Origin: Mytilus edulis | Lineage: Eukaryota | Assembly: GCF_963676685.1 (NCBI RefSeq) | Contig: NC_092344.1 | Coordinates: forward strand, 120,280,001 to 120,344,000 | Direction of reading: 5' to 3' | Length of the DNA stretch: 64,000 bases | Notes under the pieces: generated by a model | What the model saw: only the letters and a program-made list of their open reading frames with translations | Databases searched by the model: none | What the model was told of the DNA's origin: nothing | In this document: piece after piece, positions 2,514 through 62,312 of the stretch | Layout of the letters: the number at the start of each line of letters is the position of its first letter | Position numbering within the stretch: the first letter of the stretch is position 1 | Position numbers and translations under genes: made by a program

Positions 2514-3436
2514 TTTAACATAGGGACATCGGTAGCCAGTCACACTCGTCAAAGAATTGCACCACTGACTTGTCAAAACCGATGTTGTAAGTTCATATAT
2601 AACATAGGGACCTCGGTAGCCAGTCACAATCGTCCAAGAACTGCACCACTGACTTGTCAAAACCGATGTTGTAAGTTCATATATAACATAGGGACCTCGG
2701 TAGCCAGTCACACTCGTCCAAGTACTGCACCACTGACTTGTCAAAACCGATGTTGTAAGTTCATATATAACATAGGGACCTCGGTAGCCAGTCACAATCG
2801 TCCAAGTACTGCACCACTGACCTGTCAAAACCGATGTTGTAAGTTCATATATAACATAGGGACCTCGGTAGCCAGTCACAATCGTCCAAGTACTGCACCA
2901 CTGACCTGTCAAGACCGATGTTGTAAGTTCGTATATAACATAGGGACTTAGGTAGCCAGTCACAATCGTCCAAGTACTGCACCACTGACCTGTCAAGACC
3001 GATGTTGTAAGTTCGTATATAACATAGGGACCTCGGTAGCCAGTCACACTCGTCCAAGAACTGCACCACTGACTTGTCAAAACCGATGTTGTAAGTTCGT
3101 ATATAACATCGGGACTTCGGTAGCCATTCACACTCGTCCAAGTACTGCACCACTGACTTGTCAAAACCGATGTTGTAAGTTCATATATAACATAGGGACC
3201 TCGGTAGCCAGTCACACTCGTCCAAGTACTGCACCACTGACTTGTCAAAACCGATGTTGTAAGTTCATATATAACATCGGGACCTCGGTAGCCAGTCACA
3301 CTCGTCCAAGAACTGCACCACTGACTTGTCAAAGCCGATGTTGTAAGTTCATATATAACATAGGGACCTCGGTAGCCAGTCACACTCGTCCAAGTACTGC
3401 ACCACTGACTTGTCAAAACCGATGTTGTAAGTTCAT

Positions 3437-3848
3437 TTCTCTAATTTTTGTGCTATTTTCACATTTCCTGACCGGTGTGAGAAAAATATTTCTCCTCACT
3501 AGTGAAAAATCTGTTCTCGGCAAATGATTAGTCGAAATTTGATTATGACGTCAAAATGTTTTGTTTTCTTCTCAATTTTCCTATTGTGACGTCATGGAAA
3601 AAGGCGACCTTGCCTGATGACGTCGCATATAAAGAGCACAATTTTCTGAAAATCTTTGAAAAAGAACGATAAAAAGCATTAGAGAAACAGATTCCGACAC
3701 TATAACTCGTGTATTACGATATTTCTCCACTCTCGACAGTTCAATTTTATTATTTAAAGGGCTCGGCAAGCCTCGCTCTTTAAATAATAAAATTTAACTG
3801 TCTCGAGTGGAGAAATATCGTAATACACTTGTTGCAGTGTAAGAATCT
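3437..3848. mobile_element. Unclassified non-autonomous insertion containing a ~160-bp imperfect hairpin
   Basis: Interrupts the 84-bp array; arms gtgtattacgatatttctccactc...ttttattatttaaag and ctttaaataataaaa...gagtggagaaatatcgtaatacac within ~3689-3848. Confidence 0.6.
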
Positions 3849-6630
3849 ATATATATAACATAGGGACCTCGGTAGTCAGTCACACTCGTCCAAGTACTGC
3901 ACCACTGACTTGTCAAAACCGATGTTGTAAGTTCATATATAACATAGGGACCTCGGTAGCCAGTCACACTCGTCCAAATACTGCACCACTGACCTGTCAA
4001 GACCGATGTTGTAAGTTCGTATATAACATAGGGACCTCGGTAGCCAGTCACAATCGTCCAAGTACTGCACCACTGACCTGTCAACACCGATGTTGTAAGT
4101 TCGTATATAACATAGGGATCTCGGTAGCCAGTCACACTCGTCCAAGTACTGCACCACTGACCTGTCAAAACCGATGTTGTAAGTTCATATATAACATAGG
4201 GACCTCGGTAGCCAGTCACAATCGTCCAAGTACTGCACCACTGACCTGTCAAAACCGATGTTGTAAGTTCGTATATAACATAGGGACCTCGGTAGCCAGT
4301 CACAATCGTCCAAGTACTGCACCACTGACTTGTCAAAACCGATGTTGTAAGTTCATATATAACATCGGGACTTCGGTAGCCAGTCACAATCGTCCAAGTA
4401 CTGTACAACTCACTTATTAACACTGAGAGTTTCAGTTCATATATGACATAGGGCTTTAGTAACCGGTGTCATTAGTCCTACTACTGTATCACTGGCATGT
4501 CAACACGGAGGTTGTCAGTTCATATAATACATAGGGGCCACGGTAGCCAATCACACTTGTTCAACTGATTTTTATAGTTTGTTCATATGTTGTATTGTTA
4601 CACCGCTGTCCCGTTTTTTGTATAAATATCCGAGTCTCCGTACTAAAATCATGAAAAAAAACAACAAGGAAAAAAACATTTCTGTGTGAGAAAAAAAGAC
4701 GATAGAACTTTGAACTTATTAAAAAGATGGCTCATATATAAAACTTCAAAAGAAAACAGGTGTAGCCGCGGAATTCTTTTTCTTGCTATAATCACATTGA
4801 TTTAACATTCCTTTATTAAGGATCTGAGTTATCTCCCCTTATATAGCTAAGATGACAGAAATTGAAATTTCGTATTAATATGAAAAAAACATATCATATT
4901 CTTAAGTAAGATAAAGCGTTTTACACTTTAATAACATTTAAAAACAAACGGAATAAGCATGATAATCAAATATCGAAACCATGGTATAGATAAAAGGATA
5001 TTTTGGTTAAAATGTAACTCCAAAGAAGGTCATATGGATAATATATTATGTTTGTCGGCTGTGCTTAGTTGTAAATCTTGGCATCAACTCATTATTTCCA
5101 CTAATTTCTTCCCTATATACTTTGTCATTTGGCTTATAAATAAGAGAGGCGAAGGATACCAAAGAGACTTTCAATAATAACCACATGTTAATCAAATCGC
5201 CAAATGTAGTTTTGCAGCCCGTTTCCGCACAAGGCATATATATATAAAAAATTAACACGAAACCAATTGATGTCGATATTTTTTTTTTAATTATCCCATG
5301 ACGTAAACAAATACAAAAAAAATATGCAAAATGACAAAACTACTGAACTCGGAGGAAAATTCAAAGTGAAACTCTAGTTGTAGATTATACAAAAGCGTAA
5401 ACCGAGCACATATATTTATTAAGATGGATACACAAAATGCTTCTGTCAACGCTTTTATATCAAATGGATGTAATGCTTACTAAAATGAATAGTGAAAGCA
5501 GATCTGTATATAAATTATTTGAAAACGGACCAGAAATAGACCTGATTGATAAATTGGTAAATGCTTTACGTCAAAAAAGAAAATATAACATACATATTTA
5601 TAACAACGTCTTTATGAGTTGTACCTCCATTGTTCCTAGCATTAAATCGGACTGTCAATGTGCTATTTCACATTGAGACAGTCCCAATACATATGACCTT
5701 TATCGACCGATACGTCTTTTCCTAATGCTACATGCTTTGTGGAGGAGCAGCAATAGCTAATTGTATGGCCATTGTTATAACCAAGCTGGAGCTTGTACAT
5801 ACAACGTATGTTGAATACGGTATCTCGATACCATAAATAAAATATTATCAAAAATAGCAAGGGAGGTTCCCATTTGTATCGAATGCCCTTATATCAGAGG
5901 GGGGAAGTACTCATAGCTATCAATATCTGTAGTTAGGGTATTTAAAGATATGTTTTCTAATATAAAATTTATCTGCATCAAAACTTTGAAGAAAATGTAA
6001 TTTGTAGTTTAAAGGAAATAAATTGGATGCTTGAGTGGTACGAACAAAAATTATAATGAAAAATAAGCATAATGCAACTTCTCCTCAAAGTTAAAGTCTC
6101 TCTTACTTTTTCCCTGCAAACCAGTAAATGTAAATTTCTTTAATTTTTTTAACATCGTTGTTAGTCTTGTTTGGACGTGGCGCGCGTCTGGCGTATAAAA
6201 TTTTAAACCAGGTCCCTGTTATTGGCTATTAATCGTTTGTTTCTCTGTCTTATAGTTTCTCCCATTTATTTGTATTGTAGTTCTGTCATGTTATGTTGTC
6301 GTTTGAATGTTATAATTAACATTGCCATTAAAGCGGGAGGTTTGGCATGCCACAAAACCAGGTTCAACACATCATTATTTTCTTAAAATGCCCTGTTTTT
6401 AGTCGGGGAAATGGCCATTGTTATGTTATAGTTCGTTTCTGTGTGCGTTGCGTTTTGGTGTTGTGTTTCTGTTGTGTCGTGGTTCTGTTATGTTTGATGC
6501 GTTTCCCTCGGTTTTGGTTTTGTGGCTCGGGTTTGTTTTTTCTCTATCGTTTCGGACAACGGTATACTACTGTTGCCTTTGTTGAAACATTTTCTGTTAA
6601 TGACATAAAAGATTAACGACTTTGTGTATG

Positions 6631-16418: not shown

Positions 16419-17698
16419 ATGTATAAACAATTATGTAGCTAACTCCTTTTTTTTTCTGTTGGTTTATCATCTCTATATACTTTTTTGCTTACAATGATTT
16501 GTTTGTATATATTTTTATTATTATTCTTACATATATGTATGACAAGCATATTCCTAAAGGTAAACAACCACCTTGAAGACAATGCTTTTTATGTAAATTT
16601 TAAAAAAAACAGTAAAAATACCAAAATATGTAGCGATGATTGTGATGGAATATTAGATTTCATACTTTCAAGAAGTAATAGAAAGAAGAGTAAAATAGAA
16701 AAGAACTGTAATGTTGTATGTTATAACATAATGTCAAAGAGTAATAGAAAAAAAAATGTATTGGTTTGTGTTATCAACTGGATCATGCAAATAATACACA
16801 CATAATTAAAGAATGTTCTTTAATAAACAGACCTATACACAATAAATATCTAATAATATTCCATAAATTTGCAATATCGATTCCTTTATGTATGTATTAT
16901 CATACTAGAAAGAACAGTTTTCAAACAAAATATAACTTCCAACAGTTTTACTGGAGTAAGAATCTCAAAATTCCAATCTTATGCAGCTGGGAAAATAAAT
17001 CCATGAATCAACCAGTAATCCAGCAACATTTAACTGCAGATCATAATTACATCTGGAAAAAAACACACTGTACATGTAAATTCGTTCGTATTAACTTTTG
17101 GCTTCAATATATTGCATCACTATACAAATACACGCACAGATATAGATACTGGGAAGGAATTCCTAGTCAAAATCCAGCAATAGTATTGCTCACACACGTA
17201 TGTATTCTTGTAAAAGTCTTCAGCATCACTAAATCCAAGAGTTTTAGTCTTCTTGTGAAACAAGAAAATTTATCCTGTTACCAAATGGTGTCGAATATAT
17301 CCGAAGTACCTACAAAAATAAAAACAAAATTGATACAATCAACTTCAACTAAAACAAAACATAGCAATATAAGTGCATTATTAGAACCAATAGAATTCAA
17401 CAGAACAAAAACAATTAATAGAAATTACATGAGCAAACTATGGCTATTTATAGATGTGGGAAAATCCCTACACAAATTATTTAAAACATGTACACCTTTC
17501 CTGAAATGGTGTCCAATTTTTAAGATAGATAAAATATATATAAAAGATCATGTATTTATTATATGTATAGTTATTATTATCATGTTAAATATACTGTTGT
17601 TCTTAATATATATATATATTTTCTTTACTATGCATGTTATTGTTGTTGTATACATGTATGTTTGTCAAATGTATTTAGTTTTAAAATACTCGCTTTAA
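16419..17698 (+). other. Putative additional hydrophobic ORF inside the LINE between ORF1 and ORF2 (one stop, one frameshift)
   Basis: 310 stop-free codons (16766-17698) in very AT-rich DNA; overlaps ORF 16485-16805 at an A9 run; hydrophobic N- and C-terminal segments. Confidence 0.5.
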
Positions 17699-17719
17699 GC
17701 TACAAAAAATATAAGAATA

Positions 17720-20700
17720 ATGAATAAAACTTTACATATCTGTTCCTTAAATTGTCAAGGACTAGGCCAAAAAGAAAAAAGAAATAGGCTTTATACATGG
17801 TTAAAATATCAAAAAACAGATATACTTTTTATCCAAGAAACTCATTTTGTTAAAGAAATAGAAAATAAAGTAAGTAATGAATATGACGCAGATATTTTTC
17901 ACAGTTTTGGCACAACACAATCAAAAGGAGTAGCTATATTTATTAAAAAAACAATAAACCCAAAGATAATTGATACTTTTACTGATCAAGAAGGTCGCAT
18001 AATTCTTGTAAATGTTGAAATAAACAACAACATATTTTCTTTAATAAATTTATATGCACCTAATGAGAAAAAAAAGCGAAACATCTTCTTTAAAAATGTA
18101 AATAAAATAATTGAAGAACATAGTCTCGGAATTTTAGTAGTAGGGGGAGATATGAATGAAACATTGAGTAGTACAGATAGAAAGAATAATAATAAAAAAA
18201 GAGAACAAAAAATTACAAATAGTTTGAAAACTTTAATAAAAACAAACAAACTAGAAGATATTTGGAGACAATTACATCCGAAACTATATCAATATACATG
18301 GAAACGTAAAAATAAAGACGATGAGGCAAGTAGAATAGATTATTTTCTAACGGGTAAGGAATTGAGAACTATGATAAAGTCTACAGATATAAGACCAGCC
18401 CTAATTTCTAGTACAGACCATCAGGCAATTTCATTGAAAATTAACATGTCCAATGATAATAAGGGTAAAGGGTTCTTTAAAATAAACAACAGCATACTAA
18501 CTGACAAATCTTATAAAGATAAAATAGAAAAAGTTATAGACTATTTTATACTTAAAAGCAATTACACTGAAAATTTATCACAACTATGGGACCTGTTTAA
18601 AATTGAAGTAAGAGAATCAACGATACAGTTTTGCAAAAATAAATCTAGGCAAAGGAAAAATGAAATTCAAAATTTGGAAAAAAAACTTCAAACATTACAG
18701 AAAAGAAAGGATAATAATAAACCAAGTGAAGTAGAAAAGAACGAAATCAATTTATTAGAAAGTGAGATAGAATCTCTTTATAGTTATAAAGCAAAAGGTG
18801 CACAAATACGTTCAAGAATAAAATGGATAGAAGAAGGGGAAAAGAATTCTAAATTTTTTCTAGGATTAGAGAAAAGTAGACAAACAAGAAAAAATATAAT
18901 AAATTTAAAAAACGATAAAGGGGAGATAATTACAAAACAATCAGAAATACTAAATTTAGAAAAGAAATATTATGAAAAGCTTTACACAAGCACTAAACCA
19001 GATAAAAATTTTATAAACACATATATTAAGGATACAAATATTAAACAATCATTAAGTAAAGAAGAAAGCAATTCTCTAAATGGACTTCTATCAACAGAAG
19101 AATGTACAAAATCAATTTTTCAAATGAAATTAAATAAATCCCCAGGCCTAGATGGACTCTCAGTAGAGTTTTATAGAGAATTTTGGGACAAATTAAAGAA
19201 TTATGCAATTCAAAGCTTTAATTATTGCTATAAAAAAGGAATGTTATCTGAATCACAAAAAATAGGCCTAATTTCTCTAATATTTAAAAAAGGAGACCCC
19301 ACTGAATTAGGTAATTACAGACCAATTACACTATTAAATGTTGATGTTAAAATTATTGCATATACATTAGCCCAAAGATTAAAACCTGTGATGTCAAAAA
19401 TTATCCACAGTGACCAAAATGGATACATTAAAAACCGTTATATAGGTTTTAATATACGTCAGATACAAGACATTATAGATCATGCAGAAAAGTTAAAAAT
19501 AGATGGAGCTATACTTTTTCTAGACTTTTCCAAAGCCTTTGATTCCCTAGAGTGGGAATTCATGTATCAATCACTAACAAAATTTGGTATAGAAAATTCT
19601 ATGTTAAGATGGGTCAAAACCTTGTATGCAGATATCAAGGCATGTATTTCTAATAATGGATGGATTTCAAGCCCACTGAATATTTTTAGAGGAATTCGAC
19701 AAGGATGTCCTTTAAGCGCCATTTTATTCGTCTTTGCAGTCGAAATATTAGCCTGTAGAATAAGAAACGACAATAATCTTAAGGGAATAAATATAAAGTT
19801 AGATGGAAAAACGCACAGCCTTATAATAAGCCAGTTAGCTGATGATACTACATTGTTTCTCTGCTCTAAAGATGAAATCTCTCAGTCATTTAATATAATT
19901 GAAGTATTTGGTTCTCTATCAGGACTTATTTTAAATCGAAGTAAAACTGAAGGATTAGGTTTTGGAAAATTAAAACATATTCAAGACAATTTTGAGAATA
20001 TTAACTGGAGCAAAGAGACTGTTAAAAGCCTTGGCATTCACTTTGGATATAATAAATCTCAATGTATGAATTTAAACATAGAAAAACAACTTCAAAAATC
20101 TGAAAAAATTCTTAACTCATGGAAAAAAAGAAAGCTAACAATGATCGGAAAAGTAACTGTCGTGAAATCTCTAGTTATACCAATATAACATATTTAGCTT
20201 CTGTAACTGATATCGACAAAAATTCACTATTTAAGTTTAAAAAAATGATTTATGAATTCATTTGGGACCATAAAAAAGAAAAAAATTAAAAGAAAAACAA
20301 TTAACATGAAAAAAACTGAGGGAGGACTTGGAATGATAGATATTGACAAGTTTATTAATGCAATAAAAATTAAATGGGTAAAAAGATTAATAGAAGGTGA
20401 ACAGTCAAATTGGAAAATTATTCCCACATTATACTTTAATCAATATGGATCAAATTTTTTAATATTTCACATGAATCTGGATAATTTAAAATCAATAAAT
20501 ATAAAAAACAACAAAATCCCTAATTTTTACTTTGAAATACTTAAAACCTGGGTAAAATATGGCGGTGGTCAAACTAATAAACCAGAAAACTTTAGAACCA
20601 TTAGACAACAAATTATATGGGGTAACAAATACATAAAGTTAAATGGGCACAGTTTAGTTTTTAATCATTGGATAAAAGACAACATAATCTATGTAAATGA

Positions 20701-21520
20701 CATAATTGATGACAGAGGAAGAATATCAAAAGAAAAAATACTCAATAAGTTAAAATGTAAAAGAAATTGGATTGCAGAAATAATACAAATAAGAAAGAGC
20801 ATACCAAATCATTGGAAAGATATATTACAAAAACAAAACTCATTAAAAACTATTGTTAATTGTAAAAAACAACTATGTTTAAAACAAGGCGCAATTATAT
20901 ATGATTTACAAAAAATTAATAATAAAGATATTTATGTCATCTTATCTAATGTAAATAAAGATATTCATATAGGGTTTACAAAATGGCGGAAAGAACTAAA
21001 TATAGATAAAATTCAACCAAAAATTAAATACACATTAAATTTTATTTTTAATTATTTAGAAGACAATAAATTAAAAATGGTTCGATGGAAATTATTACAT
21101 TATATACTACCTGTAGGTACACATCTTTTCACATGGAAAATTAAAAACGCCAATCTGTGTTCAGTGTGTGGGATACCAGATACTTATCAACACAATTTCA
21201 TGGAATGTACTTATTTTAAAGTTTTTTGGAATAAAATTTGTATTTTATTAAATAAGCTTCATATTGGTGAGCATATAGTTACTTTAAAACACTTAGTAGT
21301 AGGATATAAAATAGAAGAGGACTCATTAAATGATATTAATTATCTCCTGACAGTCATCCTATTCACTCTACACAAATGCAATTGTATTTCAAATAATAAA
21401 ATAAATCAAGTTAATGTTTATGAAATATTTAAACAAGAATTTAAATACAGATATCATCTGATGGAGTATAGAAATAAAACAATAAGTAAGATGCTTAAAA
21501 ATATTCAAAATTATATGTAA
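17720..21520 (+). CDS. LINE ORF2p: APE endonuclease, reverse transcriptase, C-terminal zinc motif; two compensating 1-nt indels near 20182 and 20280
   Basis: APE motifs SLNCQGL, IQETH, NLYAPN, GGDMN, SRIDYF, TDH; RT motifs KSPGLDG, YRPITLLN, LDFSKAFD, GIRQGCPLS, QLADD; CSVC..H..C. ORFs 17720-20188 and 20252-21520 are in the same frame. Confidence 0.93.
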
Positions 21521-37393: not shown

Positions 37394-37920
37394 AGATCCA
37401 AATAGTTATAAAGCCAAACAAGTAGAAGGTCGAAGAGCATTCAGGACCCAAAATTCCCAAAAGTTGAAATCATATTATTAACTCTTAATATCTATTAGTG
37501 TAAATATAAAGACTCGTTGTACTCACTGTATGTATAATTTACCTTCGACCATGCGCTGGTATTCGGGTTACAAACCCGAAAATGATCAATATATTGATAG
37601 TAAATATGATTTAACGTAAATGTTTGTTACAAGGAAAAACAGATTTTCCAGTTTTATTTTTAAAATTTACCTGTGAAAAACGAACCTCAATTTCAATACA
37701 AGAAATTTATACAGGTGACGCCATATTGTTAAACGTAAAAGTAAACAACTCTCTGTGTTGCAACCTACATGTAAGTCCAGTAGTACCTATAAGCGGTAAG
37801 TTTATTCGGGAATCAATTATCAACATTACCATAGACTTTAATCAAAATATTAATGAAATTCAATGCTCAAACTTTGTTTTATCAAAATTTATTAAATCAT
37901 TTTTTATTTTTACTGTAGGA

Positions 37921-39171
37921 ATGGAAGCTGCATCAACAGCTTGTGATGGCTGCGAAAAGGATGAAAAGGTAGAATCATTTTGCGTCAATTGTGAGCAGCT
38001 TTATTGCCCTGAGTGCACCGCTTATCATATGAAATGTAAAGCGACACGTTCCCACGTCTTATTAGATGCATCACATCTTGATACAGATATAACTCACGCT
38101 TCAACTGATGTCCAGTGTGGCAATGAATGCGGAGAGCAGGCAGTAGTTCTTTGTCTAGACTGTAAACAGTTACTTTGTGACAACTGTACACAGAAACATG
38201 CAAGGCTTAAAGCAACCAAAGAACATTATGCAATAACCGCGAAACAACTCGCGAGAGACGAAACAGCATCTTTAACTTCCTTTGGTGCTTACTCTGAAAG
38301 AACTTCTATAGTTTCACGTCCAAAGGAACTAGTGCATGCACAGGTTCAAGTTGAGAAAGGTCCACACTCGGGTATATTTGCACATGAGTTCATGAGTTCC
38401 GCTCCAGGAGACAAAGAAGTAACAAGAGTTCGTGGAATAGTAATTCTTTCCGATGGCAGAATTATTGTTGCCGATTATAAAAATCGGAGTTTGAAATTAT
38501 ATAGCAGTGAATTGAAATTTGAAATGGCAAAGGATATAAAAGAGGATCCAAGAGGAATGGCTGCTTCTGCTAACGATTTTGTAGTAGTCACTATTGCTGA
38601 TAAAAAGGAAATAAAAATATATAAAGTCGAACATAATAAGATACGTACTCACAAAACGATTAAAGTGAAAGAAAAACCTTACAGTATTGGTTATAATAAA
38701 GACCACTTTGCTGTTGAACACGGTGAGGGAGAAGATGGCACAATTCGTATTTATGATCAAAACATTAGAGAAATGTGTGTCATACCGGGTAATACCAGAC
38801 ACTTTGGACAATTCACTGGCAATACAATACGCCTTGCCTTAGATTATACAAAACAGGTCATATTTGTAATCGATATAGTAAAGGAGTCGGTTCACTGTGT
38901 CGATTTTAAAGGTGGTCTGATCTGGACAGTGAAAGTCGGAAGTCCTAGAGGAATTGTGTTCCACAACAATATTCTGTTTGTTGCCAGCAGTACAGAAAAC
39001 AAGATAATCCAGATGAATGCTGTCGATGGATTAGTTTACTCTATGTTAGACGAAGACAATAGAATTAAGCGTCCTCGTTACATTTCCTACAATCCTGATT
39101 TGAGGAAACTTGCTGTTGAAATCGACGGCAACCATATAAAGCTTTACAACATTATCAAATGTGACAAATGA
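37921..39171 (+). CDS. TRIM-like protein B: two B-box zinc fingers plus NHL-like beta-propeller (416 aa, single coding exon)
   Basis: Clear paralogue of 32990-34252 (shared DKEVTRVRGI, VADYKNRSLKL, GEGEDG, FGQFTGNTIRLALD, EIDGNH); ATG lies 2 nt after a T-rich ctgtag acceptor (37918). Confidence 0.92.
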   Translation: MEAASTACDGCEKDEKVESFCVNCEQLYCPECTAYHMKCKATRSHVLLDASHLDTDITHASTDVQCGNECGEQAVVLCLDCKQLLCDNCTQKHARLKATKEHYAITAKQLARDETASLTSFGAYSERTSIVSRPKELVHAQVQVEKGPHSGIFAHEFMSSAPGDKEVTRVRGIVILSDGRIIVADYKNRSLKLYSSELKFEMAKDIKEDPRGMAASANDFVVVTIADKKEIKIYKVEHNKIRTHKTIKVKEKPYSIGYNKDHFAVEHGEGEDGTIRIYDQNIREMCVIPGNTRHFGQFTGNTIRLALDYTKQVIFVIDIVKESVHCVDFKGGLIWTVKVGSPRGIVFHNNILFVASSTENKIIQMNAVDGLVYSMLDEDNRIKRPRYISYNPDLRKLAVEIDGNHIKLYNIIKCDK

Positions 39172-45769: not shown

Positions 45770-46575
45770 TTATAATGTCTGACTACCCTCTTTATACATC
45801 TTCACGTACAGTATTCTAAACATTTCTGAAATAAATTGCCTTACAAATGGTGACATCCTTTATTTTCTTTCCATGTAGGGAATTCCAATATATCTGGAAT
45901 ACTTTATCTTGGCCATGGTGGTCGCTCTTAACTATTTCCTCAAATGTAGAATCCAACAAAATACCTTAGCAAAGGTGGCATTCTTCATTATTTCATCACG
46001 TGCAAAATCTACAACCTCGAATTAATTTACCTTACACATGGTGGCGCACTTTACTATAGGTCTGCGCGCGTAGAATCCCACAACCTCAGGAATAATTTTC
46101 CATACAATGATGGCGCTCTTTACTATAGGTCTGCAGTACAGAAGCCCAGGCCATGTTGGCGCTCTTTACCATTTCTTCACGTACAGAAGCCAACAACTTC
46201 TGGAATAACTTACCGTGACTTTTTTGGTGTTCTTTTCAGTTTTTTTTATGCAGAATGCAACAGGTGTGCAGGTACAGAACCCCACAACTCTTAAATAACT
46301 TACATTGGCAATGCATGATTGTGGCGTTCTTTACTATAGGCCTTCATGTACAGAGACCCACAACTCCTGGAATAATTCATCGTGGCAATGGAGGCGCTCT
46401 TTATCATTACCTCACGTGCAGAAGCTCACAGCTTTTGGAATAACTTACCTTAGACATAGTGGCGCTCTTTACTATTTTTTCAATTACAGAGTCCCACAAC
46501 TTGTAGAAATACTCACCTTGGCCATGGTGGCGCTCTTCACAATTTCCTCACGTACAGAATCCCATAACTTCTGAT
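45770..46575 (-). repeat. Degenerate ~68-bp tandem array derived from the 3' end of NADAR2 exon 2 plus splice donor (~11 units)
   Basis: Exon-end equivalents at 46517, 46449, 46381, 46304, 46214, 46031, 45965, 45908 and 45840; recurring ggcgctctttacta and gtacagaa.cccacaac. Confidence 0.85.
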
Positions 46576-58621: not shown

Positions 58622-59050
58622 CTGAAATTAAAATCAAGTTGAATATTAATTACATCAAATAATTCTGTTTGTAAAGATGCATTTTGCTTACTTTTCCTCA
58701 TTCAATAAATTGTACATGTATAAATCAAATTAATGAGTAAAAATAAATATTAGCAATGAGATGATAAACAGAAAACATATGAATACAAATTCAAAGTACT
58801 CTTTATAAGAATGAAAACAAATATGCAAAATTGGCAATATTAATATAGCACAGAAAGAAGTAAAAGTAAGTACATTTGTACTAGTATATGAAAGGAATTA
58901 CTTTTCTAATGACATACACCTTTGCTATAGGTCATGACAAACATCTGTGTCAAAATTGAGTGACCAGTGAGTTGTATGGAAAGTATATAAGAGACATTTG
59001 TGATTTACTATTCTGTAGTGTGAAGCAATGTGATAAAGAAAACGCTTCTC

Positions 59051-61420
59051 AGAACTCGTAGTGTGAACAAGTAGCAAGGTTATATGACTAAAGCTAGTCT
59101 GAACTCGTACTGCGAACAAGTAGAAAGGTTATATGGCTAAAGCTACTCACAACTCGTAGTGTGAACAGGTAGCAAGGTTATATGGATAAAGCTAGTCAGA
59201 ACTCGTACTGCGAACAAGAAGCAAGATTATGTTGCTAAAGCTAGTCAGAACTCGTACTGCGAACAAGTAGCAAGGTTATATGGCTAAAGCTAGTCAAAAC
59301 TCGTAGTGCGAACAAGTATCAAGGTTATATGGCTAAAGTTAGTCAGACCTCGTAGTGCGAACAAGTGGCAGGGTAATAAGGCTAAAGTAAGTCAGAACTC
59401 GTAATTCGAACCAGTAGCAAGGTTATATGGCTAAAGATAGTCAGAACTCGTACTGTGAACAAGTAGCAAGGTTATATGGCTAAAGTTAGTCAGAACTCGA
59501 AGTGTGAACAAGGAGAAAAATTATATAACTAAAGCTAGTCAGAACTCGTACTGTGAACAAGTACTAAGGTTATATGGCTAAAGATAGTCAGAACTCGTAG
59601 TGGGAGTTAGTAGCAAGGTAATATGGCTAAAGCTAGTCAGAACTCGTAGTCAGTGGGAGTAAGTAGCAAGGTTATATGGCTAAAGCTAGTCAGAACTCGT
59701 AGTCAGTGGGAGTAAGTAGCAAGGTTATATGGCTAAAGCTAGTCAGAACTCGTAGTGGGAACAAGTACTAAGGTTATATGGCTAAAGCTAGTCAGAACTC
59801 GTAGTGGGAGTTAGTAGCAAGGTAATATGGCTAAAGCTAGTCAGAACTCGTAGTCATTGGGAGTAAGTAGCAAGGTTATATGGCTAAAGTAAGTCAGGCC
59901 TCATAATGGTAGTAAGAAGCAAGGTTATATAGCTAAATCTAGTCAGAACTCGTACTGCGAACAAGTGTCAAGGTGAAATGGCTAAAGTTAGTCAGACCTC
60001 GTAGTGCGAACAAGTGGCAGGGTAATAGGTCTAAAGTAAGTCAGAACTCGTAATTCGAACCAGTAGCAAGGTAAGATGGCTAAAGATAGTCAGAACTCGT
60101 ACTGTGAACAAGTAGCAAGGTTATATGGCTAAGATAGTCAGAACTCGTACTGTGAACAAGTAGCAAGGTTATATGGCTAAAGTTAGTTAGAACTCGTAGT
60201 GCGAACAAGGAGCAAGATTATATGGCTAAAGCTAGTCAGAACTCGTAGTGGGAGTAAGTAGCAAGGTTATATGGCTAAAGCTAGTCAGAACTCGTCGTGG
60301 GAACAAGTAGCAAGGTTGTATAGCTAAAGCTAGTCAAAACTAGAACTGTGAACAGGTAGCAATGTTATATGGCTAAAGCTAGTCAGAACTCGTAGTGGGA
60401 ACAAGTAGCAAGGTTATATGGCTAAAGTAAATCAGGCCTCCTAGTGGGAGTAACTAGCAAGGATATAGTTAAATCTAGTCAGAACTCGAACTGTGAACAA
60501 GTAGCAATGTTAAATGGCTAAAGTTAGTCAGACCACGTAGTGCGAACAAGTGTCAAGGTGAAATGGCTTAAGTAAGTCAGACCTCGTAGTGCGAACAAGT
60601 GGCAGGGTAATAGGTCTAAAGTAAGTCAGAACTCGTAATTCGAACCAGTAGCAAGGTAAGATGGCTAAAGATAGTCAGAACTCGTACTGTGAACAAGTAG
60701 CAAGGTTATATGGCTAAGATAGTCAGAACTCGTACTGTGAACAAGTAGCAAGGTTATATGGCTAAAGTTAGTTAGAACTCGTAGTGCGAACAAGGAGCAA
60801 GATTATATGGCTTAAGCTAGTCAGAACTCGAAGTGGGAGTAAGTAGCAAGGTTATATGGCTAAAGCTAGTCAGAACTCGTCGTGGGAACAAGTAGCAAGG
60901 TTATATAGCTAAAGCTAGTCAGAACTAGAACTGTGAACAAGTAGCAATGTTATATGTCTAAAGCTAGTCAGAACTCGTAGTGGGAACAAGTAGCAAGGTT
61001 ATATGGCTAAAGTAAGTCAGGCCTCCTAGTGGGAGTAACTAGCAAGGATATAGATAAATCTAGTCAGAACTCGAACTATGAACAAGTAGCAATGTTAAAT
61101 GTATAAAGCTAGTCAGAACTCGTAGTGGGAACAAGTAGCAAGGTTGTACGACTAAAGCTAGTCAGAACTCGTAGTGGGAACAAGTAGCAAGGTTGTGCGA
61201 CTAAAGCTAGTCAGAACTCGTAGTGTAAACAAGTAGCAATGTGATATATATAAAGCTAGTCAAAATTCGTAGTGTTAAGAAGTAGCAATGTGATATTGCT
61301 AAAGCTAGTCAGATCTTGTAGTGGGAACAAGTGCTTTAGCTATTTAACCTTGCTACTTGTTCACACTACGAATTCTGACTAGCTTCAGTAAAACCACTTT
61401 GTCACTTGTTCACACTATTG
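59051..61420. repeat. 49-bp satellite, ~46 copies, plus ~2 inverted copies at 61333-61420, in the NADAR3 intron
   Basis: Unit AGAACTCGTAGTGGGAACAAGTAGCAAGGTTATATGGCTAAAGCTAGTC; inverted copy gctttagctatttaaccttgctacttgttcacactacgaattctgact. Confidence 0.95.
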
Positions 61421-61608
61421 ACTTATACGTAAAAATGTTGTATTACCTTCCTACTGATCCATATATATTTATATGTATTCCTATCTTAGCGGTAATGACT
61501 TGTATTGCTGTTTGTATACACTGTAGATCAAACTTAGTCTTTTTTTATTTAAATTTAAAATTATACTTACTTTTGCTGTATTGTCTACCTAAATACATCA
61601 CGACTTAC

Positions 61609-61763
61609 TTTTGCCATATTGCCTTTCTTAACTATCTCTTCACGTTTTTCCTCCCATGCTACATAATCAAGATCACAGATGCTTCTTCCATAGCTCTTCA
61701 TATCGCTAGGATCGTCCAGTGACAATATAACTTTGTCTAGTTTTGCTTCATTTTTAGAAAATT
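61609..61763 (-). CDS. NADAR-domain protein 3, middle coding exon (exon 1 not found in window)
   Basis: cattttag acceptor and GTAAGT donor; FSKNEAKLDKVILSLDDPSDMKSYGRSICDLDYVAWEEKREEIVKKGNMAK; same phases as the paralogues. Confidence 0.88.
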
Positions 61764-62312
61764 CTAAAATGACATTAAGATAAGATACTTCTTTCAGGCA
61801 AAATAATCTAAGCTGACAAAGTATTTTGTTAACATGAAATTACCTATATATAATGTGTGTGTGTACTTTTACCTAAAATATGCACCCCAATGGACTTTTT
61901 CCTTTTGAAACCAACTTTCAAACAGTTTGACAAGAATTTATTGCATTAAAATATATTTTAGGCGCATTAGACATATTATAGCTTAAATACCGTAGAACAG
62001 TTTGTACATACGACTTGAGAATTGCTGTGGACAAGTTCATGTGCGAGAAACAAGAAGTCTCCAAATTTGGTGTTAGGGACTTAAAACTTCACAATCTGAT
62101 TATAAAAAAGAAGATGTGGTATGATTACCAATGACAGTCAGAGACAACTTTCCACAAGAGACCAAAATGACACAGACATTAACAACTATAGCTCACAGTA
62201 TGGCCTTCAACAATGAGCAAAGCCCATACCGCATAGTCAGCTATAAAAGACCCCGAAATGACAATGTAAAACAATCCAAACGAGAAAACTTACGGCCATT
62301 TTTATAAAATAA

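Follow-up and report, generated by a model that had tools for sequence, protein, structure and literature searches.

Splice-donor minisatellites are the closest described systems to the array reported here. They include the 37-bp VNTR in intron 7 of human F7 and further examples in CBS intron 13, 6-16 intron 2, lamin B2 and PDGF (PMC1557585). In the sections of that paper available to us, the repeat unit of the F7/CBS type straddles the junction of an exon with its intron and is repeated into the intron that follows, with the most upstream donor in use, and this is the type that our locus resembles. On a broader scale, internal tandem repeats are described, in the accessible part of a second paper, as modifying recently duplicated paralogues (PMC2812944). 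The literature that we searched, whose scope left out most subscription journals, yielded no report of an inverted splice-donor minisatellite or of the locus described below.

The array lies in a tandem cluster of NADAR genes of Mytilus edulis. NADARs reverse guanine ADP-ribosylation; what they do in animals is described as unclear in the part of the source that we could consult (PMC11125620). The window, i.e. the whole stretch of DNA analysed, comprises 64,000 nucleotides (NC_092344.1, positions 120,280,001 to 120,344,000); positions are given in its numbering, also beyond its ends, unless they are nine-digit contig coordinates. A search with PF08719 combined with tblastn over 174 kb located the cluster at 120268800-120387500 and found seven complete three-exon genes (N1-N4, N6-N8), the lone exon-3 pieces N0 and N5, and broken copies on C10 and C11. 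A lone exon-3 piece at window -11005 encodes a protein 95% identical to exon 3 of N1. The host gene of the array, N3 (NADAR3), is an intact three-exon gene on the minus strand with a PF08719 domain and a predicted enzyme activity. Relatives of its exon-1 peptide are found in Mytilus edulis (97%) and M. trossulus (85%), and no second copy or haplotig of its flanks was found elsewhere in the assembly.

Several other elements were seen in the surroundings. Intron 1 of N4 holds a 68-bp array (19 copies, 97%, 74563-75864) that is not similar to N4 exons 1 or 2, and a 72-bp array (58 copies, 95%, 101297-105508) lies between N7 and N8. An 84-bp tandem array at 2516-4564 is broken by an insert of about 410 bp and has a related 3-copy array at -18761. 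Long open reading frames on the plus strand at 16748-21517, with an endonuclease-like start, presumably belong to a LINE-type retrotransposon, and a 518-residue open frame at 37615-39168 (plus) has a cysteine pattern that we take to be B-box-like.

We consider it probable that the array in intron 2 of N3, a minisatellite confined to this locus, originated through tandem duplication of the exon-2 end and its donor, was inverted by a template switch, and is neutral. Proceeding inward from exon 2, the intron contains the true donor, a decayed copy of this donor, a spacer of about 140 nt, two units in gene sense, the orientation switch, the antisense array and a degenerate edge unit (Table 1). A preliminary description, made from the sequence alone, had anticipated this layout, with about 46 antisense units, about two sense units nearest the exon at 61333-61420 and a degenerate donor copy at about 61565-61586. 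All of these were recovered, and the claim that the array is mostly antisense in the N3 pre-mRNA holds for 46 of the 48 units. TRF assigned the antisense array a period of 49 and 46.5 copies. The units have a mean pairwise identity of about 81%, and a 12-unit block of 585 bp was duplicated recently, since 568 of 585 bases are identical between 59946-60530 and 60531-61115. The donor copy, read from 61593 to 61565, is identical to the exon-2 end at 23 of 29 positions, a value reached by none of 2000 shuffles. The spacer at 61426-61560 bears no significant resemblance to the satellite (20-83 of 500), so that an unbroken ladder of decayed sense units from exon to array is not shown; weak peaks of 14/25 at 61555, 61502 and 61450 are roughly in phase.

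Table 1. Features of the N3 locus and of the N2 array, in window numbering.
Feature	Position	Strand	Details
N3 exon 1	outside window, to 65233	minus	
N3 exon 2	61763-61609	minus	true donor GT 61608-61607; spliced RNA
N3 intron 2	58622..61608	minus	2987 nt, GT-AG
N3 exon 3, coding part to stop codon	58403..58621	minus	tblastn, translation, PF08719 match; RNA loose ends at 61609 continue into exon 3
Decayed direct copy of exon-2 end	61565-61593	minus	intact GTAAGT, GT at 61570-61569
Sense units, two	61333-61425	minus (gene sense)	nhmmer E 6.5e-12 and 8.1e-5
Fold-back junction	61328..61337, switch at 61332/61333		GC/GCTA microhomology, unit against its own reverse complement
Antisense 49-bp minisatellite	59052-61332	plus (antisense to N3)	46 units and tail
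Degenerate edge unit of array	59005..59051	plus	read from sequence
Possible decayed mirror of proximal intron flank	58842..59009	plus	antisense AAAAGTAAGTA at 58862-58872
N2 (NADAR2) intron-2 array	45788..46516	minus	about 11 decayed sense copies of N2's own exon-2 end; different repeat from that of N3

A widespread satellite unrelated to NADAR loci had been named as the finding that would overturn an origin from the exon. In the 1.37-Gb genome, all 17 DNA matches to a 201-bp satellite query fall inside the N3 array, as do all 27 matches (26 forward, one reverse) to a 28-nt pattern searched with up to two mismatches, for which the reversed control gave none. These searches detect near-identical copies, and distant relatives could escape them. 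Within this sensitivity the N3 repeat is locus-specific; a widespread satellite is therefore ruled out, and the objection fails.

The relation of the unit to the exon-2 end is less straightforward. The match of 21/25 between 61626-61602 (minus) and 59871-59895 (plus), on which the origin had been proposed, is correct in coordinates and count; it is the best case, found in two of the 46 units, with 19/25 in 17 of 46 and a range of 13-21. The donor-identical end AAAGTAAGTC occurs in only 5/46 units, and 22/46 read AAAGCTAGTC. The unit consensus aligns to the last 41 nt of exon 2 and the first 8 nt of the intron without gaps and in register, with 29 of 49 positions identical, compared to 18-24 for the exon ends of the six other paralogues. 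Based on these values, the homology of the consensus to the exon-2 end is moderate.

This leaves room for the view that the satellite is an unrelated, locus-specific minisatellite whose likeness to the exon is a coincidence of A/G-rich sequence and looks stronger than it is because the best of 46 units was chosen. The match of the exon end is weak by nhmmer (E = 1.6 in 214 kb), and shuffles of a 100-bp exon-end target reached it in 2, 23 and 35 of 500 cases under three scorings, the latter two counting in favour of chance likeness, like the 86/3000 obtained with the whole of exon 2. Against the array, two windows with no relation to it reach 18 and 17, close to the 19 of the N3 exon end; the match of the consensus is poor over the upstream 24 columns, and the gapped best match rests on an interior unit variant. 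On the other side, shuffles of the exon end with its donor never reached the observed score (0/3000), shuffles of the last 46 exon bases only did so in 5/3000 cases, and the consensus, which is free of unit picking, gave 17/3000. Compared with the array, the N3 exon-2 end ranks first of 12,690 54-mers in the 174 kb; likewise, the best ungapped match in 111,459 bases on both strands is the N3 exon end (score 15, next 13), exactly on the donor adjacent to the array. The match also agrees in orientation with the two units nearest the exon, and a direct copy of the donor lies between exon and array. Thus, of the significance check proposed earlier for consensus against exon end, the junction and consensus tests speak for the match, and the nhmmer E-value and the whole-exon test against it. 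Taken together, we regard a chance likeness as unlikely, and amplification of the exon-2 end and donor, as proposed at the outset, as most likely. Judged from the alignments, the repeat very probably derives from the exon-2 junction; the register is less certain. Since the exon-2 ends of N8 and N6 score 18 and 17 with the register shifted by 15 nt (that of N4 scores 16), the exact register is insecure.

In RNA, exon 2 leaves at 61609 for exon 3 in three of four runs (four reads in X23, one contig each in X18 and X15), and in X24 the exon-2 end is not covered. The four low-depth runs contained no loose end at the donor copy at 61570. Reads were aligned over 61240-62000 and 61255-61680. None of the raw reads in X23 or X24 (33 and 5) crosses the boundary between exon 2 and intron 2, and the contig depth in X15, a crude measure, is 2.4 for intron 2, 3.6 for intron 1 and 68.5 for the exon. 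Splicing of exon 2 to exon 3 is thus normal in the RNA seen, at low depth. Given this depth, the origin of most X23 reads in a divergent haplotype and the possible presence of DNA in X15, these data speak to normal splicing and not to an absence of regulation. Differences at 61344, 61346 and 61372 that could be mistaken for RNA editing are best explained by reads of other units placed on the sense units. The divergent exon-2 haplotype is present in X23 and X3 (61630-61783), with a changed segment near 61675-61707, and 18 of its X23 reads run unspliced into intron 1.

The preliminary description had raised the possibility of splicing control through RNA structure. According to this reading, the antisense array would act as a functional anti-donor. 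Its units would base-pair with the end of exon 2 and the 5' splice site, delay U1 binding and adjust how often intron 2 is retained or exon 2 skipped; alternatively, the fold-back hairpin would recruit ADAR. Array units do appear on the expected pre-mRNA strand (five reads in X23, one in X24, strand inferred), and the predicted energetics are considerable. Duplexes of the donor 31-mer with array units range from −12.8 to −29.5 kcal/mol (median over units −21.8), and among 86 windows none pairs with the array more strongly than this 31-mer, as against −5.6 kcal/mol for a U1 5' motif. Equilibrium folding without a span limit gives a predicted probability of 0.97-1.0 that the donor GT pairs with the array; after in-silico reversal of the array to sense, the GT is paired at 0.10-0.17. 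The duplex prediction suggested earlier therefore came out as expected for unrestricted folds, but the pairing was lost when base-pair spans were limited to 500 nt or less: the pairing of the donor GT was 0.47-0.55 at a limit of 150 nt, 0.13-0.19 at 300 nt and 0.11-0.24 at 500 nt. When the transcript was extended stepwise, it was 0.07-0.21 when 0 or 100 nt of the antisense had been transcribed, 0.72-0.74 after 200 nt, 0.14-0.16 after 300 nt and 1.0 after 500 nt. Pairing of donor and array is accordingly predicted only at spans above 500 nt. The sense units and the nearest antisense units are predicted to form a hairpin of their own (−90.9 kcal/mol, mean pairing probability 0.82).

If pairing had been maintained by selection, the paired columns might be expected to stand out. 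Scored on the 35 distinct units among the 39 that are 49 bp long, columns matching the exon are not extra conserved (0.92 vs 0.86, p 0.22), and neither is the pairing half (0.91 vs 0.89, p 0.27). The base identical to the exon is found in only 10/35 of these units at donor +2 and in 5/35 at +3, although the consensus retains a U-G wobble at +2. Furthermore, any inverted copy folds on its source, so that the fold of donor and array adds little beyond their homology. The orientation switch is present in runs that carry the labels of two organisms and a gill metagenome, which would suit a function, and the RNA depth is too low to speak against condition-specific effects. With normally spliced products in three of the four runs, no read over the boundary, no predicted pairing at short spans and no excess conservation, we did not find backing for the proposed splicing control and rate an anti-donor function as improbable. 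That the flipped minisatellite blocks the 5' splice site of its host gene through antisense elements tunable by length, with repeat number setting intron-2 retention and NADAR3 output, is distinctly improbable. If array length or orientation did alter splicing, this would be a simple route from a repeat to a cis antisense regulator, of which we found no description.

Intron 2 of N2 carries an array as well, and the preliminary description had inferred independent amplification of the homologous junction in both genes, pointing to a recurrent mutational hotspot. The two amplifications indeed appear to be separate: identity of the N3 repeat is 29/49 to the N3 exon end and 20/49 to that of N2; two events are also likely because the N2 copies carry N2's own exon sequence and a tree, with an unresolved backbone, does not group N2 with N3. 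To the hotspot itself, where the exon-2 donor of NADAR genes would be amplified repeatedly, we give very little probability. We compared four junctions in eight paralogues in both orientations (64 tests; N0 and N5, which have exon 3 only, and two broken copies on C11 were left out). Only the exon-2 donor of N2, that of N3 (both orientations) and the intron-1 acceptor of N6 gave 0/200, and two other tests gave 3 and 4/200. In favour of a hotspot, two of the eight exon-2 donors are thus amplified, apparently separately. Against it, the other six show nothing at this site, the third of the three amplified junctions (of 32) is an intron-1 acceptor, three events over four junction types place two on the same type by chance in about 62% of cases, and tandem repeats are dense across the 174 kb.

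The N6 amplification is an exact 49-bp triplication of the intron-1 acceptor and the first bases of exon 2 (87134-87285; 120367134-120367285), resulting in three identical candidate 3' splice sites. In spite of the equal unit length, it is a separate repeat, and we rejected kinship with the N3 array.

At the switch, the two orientations join over a microhomology of 2-4 nt, where GCTA of unit positions 42-45 abuts the reverse complement of positions 21-24. That the switch is a fold-back chimera of sequencing or assembly is next to impossible: although palindromic joints are a known long-read artefact and X12, one of the four DNA runs, gave no contig across it, single contigs from X4 (no differences), X6 (one) and X3 (one) span it and exclude an assembly chimera, unless the assembled animal was the source of all three, and its sense and antisense arms are diverged rather than identical. 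X4, X6 and X3 have three study codes and three different organism labels, including two organisms and a gill metagenome. The switch is genuine and inherited. Within the array itself the short-read contigs break, so that they do not extend over its full length.

No reciprocal second breakpoint was found near the array. Within the 174 kb the 11-mer AAAAGTAAGTA has two occurrences, 61564 on the minus and 58862 on the plus strand, which flank the array and lie about equally far from its respective ends. An anchored global alignment of donor copy and spacer with their putative mirror scored above all but 4/2000 shuffles, the alignment having been chosen post hoc. For the spacer alone the value was 51/1000, with 21/8310 genomic windows, and an unanchored local alignment gave 151-572/1000. 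With their support being post hoc, these alignments are no more than suggestive of a mirrored donor copy and spacer beyond the array. A palindrome comprising the whole intron with an inverted exon 2 was rejected (524/1000 and 243/1000). Two more AAAAGTAAG motifs are found in the 430-bp distal flank, at 58687-58695 (minus) and 58862-58872 (plus), and four of the eight occurrences of this motif in the 174 kb sit in N3 intron 2 or at the N3 donor.

A neutral origin of the N3 array from its own splice donor could be reconstructed in five steps. Slippage or unequal exchange would first have copied some 40-50 nt over the exon-intron boundary into the intron, with the copy at 61570 as a remnant. Drift would then have lowered the identity of the copies with the exon to about 60%, while homogenisation acted within the set of copies. 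A polymerase may next have switched strands where GCTA matches the reverse complement further up the unit, leaving two sense units and an antisense arm. The antisense arm would have grown, most recently by the 12-unit block duplication. Finally, splicing would have stayed unaffected, since the donor is made about 275 nt ahead of the first antisense base, a hairpin with the two sense units could sequester roughly the first 100 nt of antisense, and copies that have been flipped would have ceased to be decoy donors. The origin from the donor is supported by the same process being plain in N2 (0/200) and in the copy at 61570. Among the 599 candidate metagenome stretches listed, none contains an orthologous intron 2; at least two NADAR loci among them, one bacterial-type and one a distant animal exon, are not orthologues of N3. 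The distant animal exon (L074:427-570) has its intron at the same position, after the KGNMAK codons, with no visible repeat in 437 bp of the intron.

Seen in this way, the array is likely a curiosity of repeat evolution. It would mean that a splice-donor minisatellite can flip, turning decoy donors into donor-complementary sequences, and that the gene tolerates the flip. The cluster offers a natural comparison, with a sense array in N2, an antisense array in N3 and none in the five other complete paralogues.

Compared to other known systems, the orientation switch resembles fold-back or template-switch inverted duplications, in which, according to the parts of the reports available, strands switch at a few bases of inverted microhomology and leave a hairpin-shaped junction (PMC11724301, PMC7467729). 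A template-switch fold-back is the likely mechanism in N3 as well, inferred from the junction only. The described cases follow induced breaks in yeast, whereas the N3 event is old and inherited and its inverted arm was then tandemly expanded. In its predicted duplex near an exon, the array is reminiscent of inverted Alu pairs and long-range intronic duplexes, which are likewise formed by inverted repeats in pre-mRNA (PMC13019944, accessible part). In N3, however, pairing would involve the splice site itself, both arms are located 3' of the exon, and any effect on splicing is hypothetical. The expansion of minisatellites at exon-intron boundaries, enriched in large groups of paralogues and explained by slippage or unequal crossover where selection is relaxed, is a closer parallel (PMC2812944). 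Those repeats are human, recent and near-identical, and the sections available to us describe no inverted array.

With the F7/CBS type, the N3 array shares homology to an exon end and 5' splice site, at a moderate level, and a locus-specific array. It differs in lacking a direct run of sense copies from the boundary, for which a single decayed copy and a spacer stand instead. It also lacks usable pseudo-donors, as antisense units cannot be donors, one sense unit is truncated where its donor would lie and the second has GC there, leaving GTAAGT to the copy at 61570. In F7, as far as the available part of the source goes, the copies are identical pseudo-donors that follow the true site, in contrast to N3, where most units are antisense and without a GT, the consensus has diverged from the exon end and about 140 nt separate the donor copy from the array (PMC1557585). 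Without sense orientation and usable pseudo-donors, we therefore class the N3 array as a variant of the splice-donor minisatellite.
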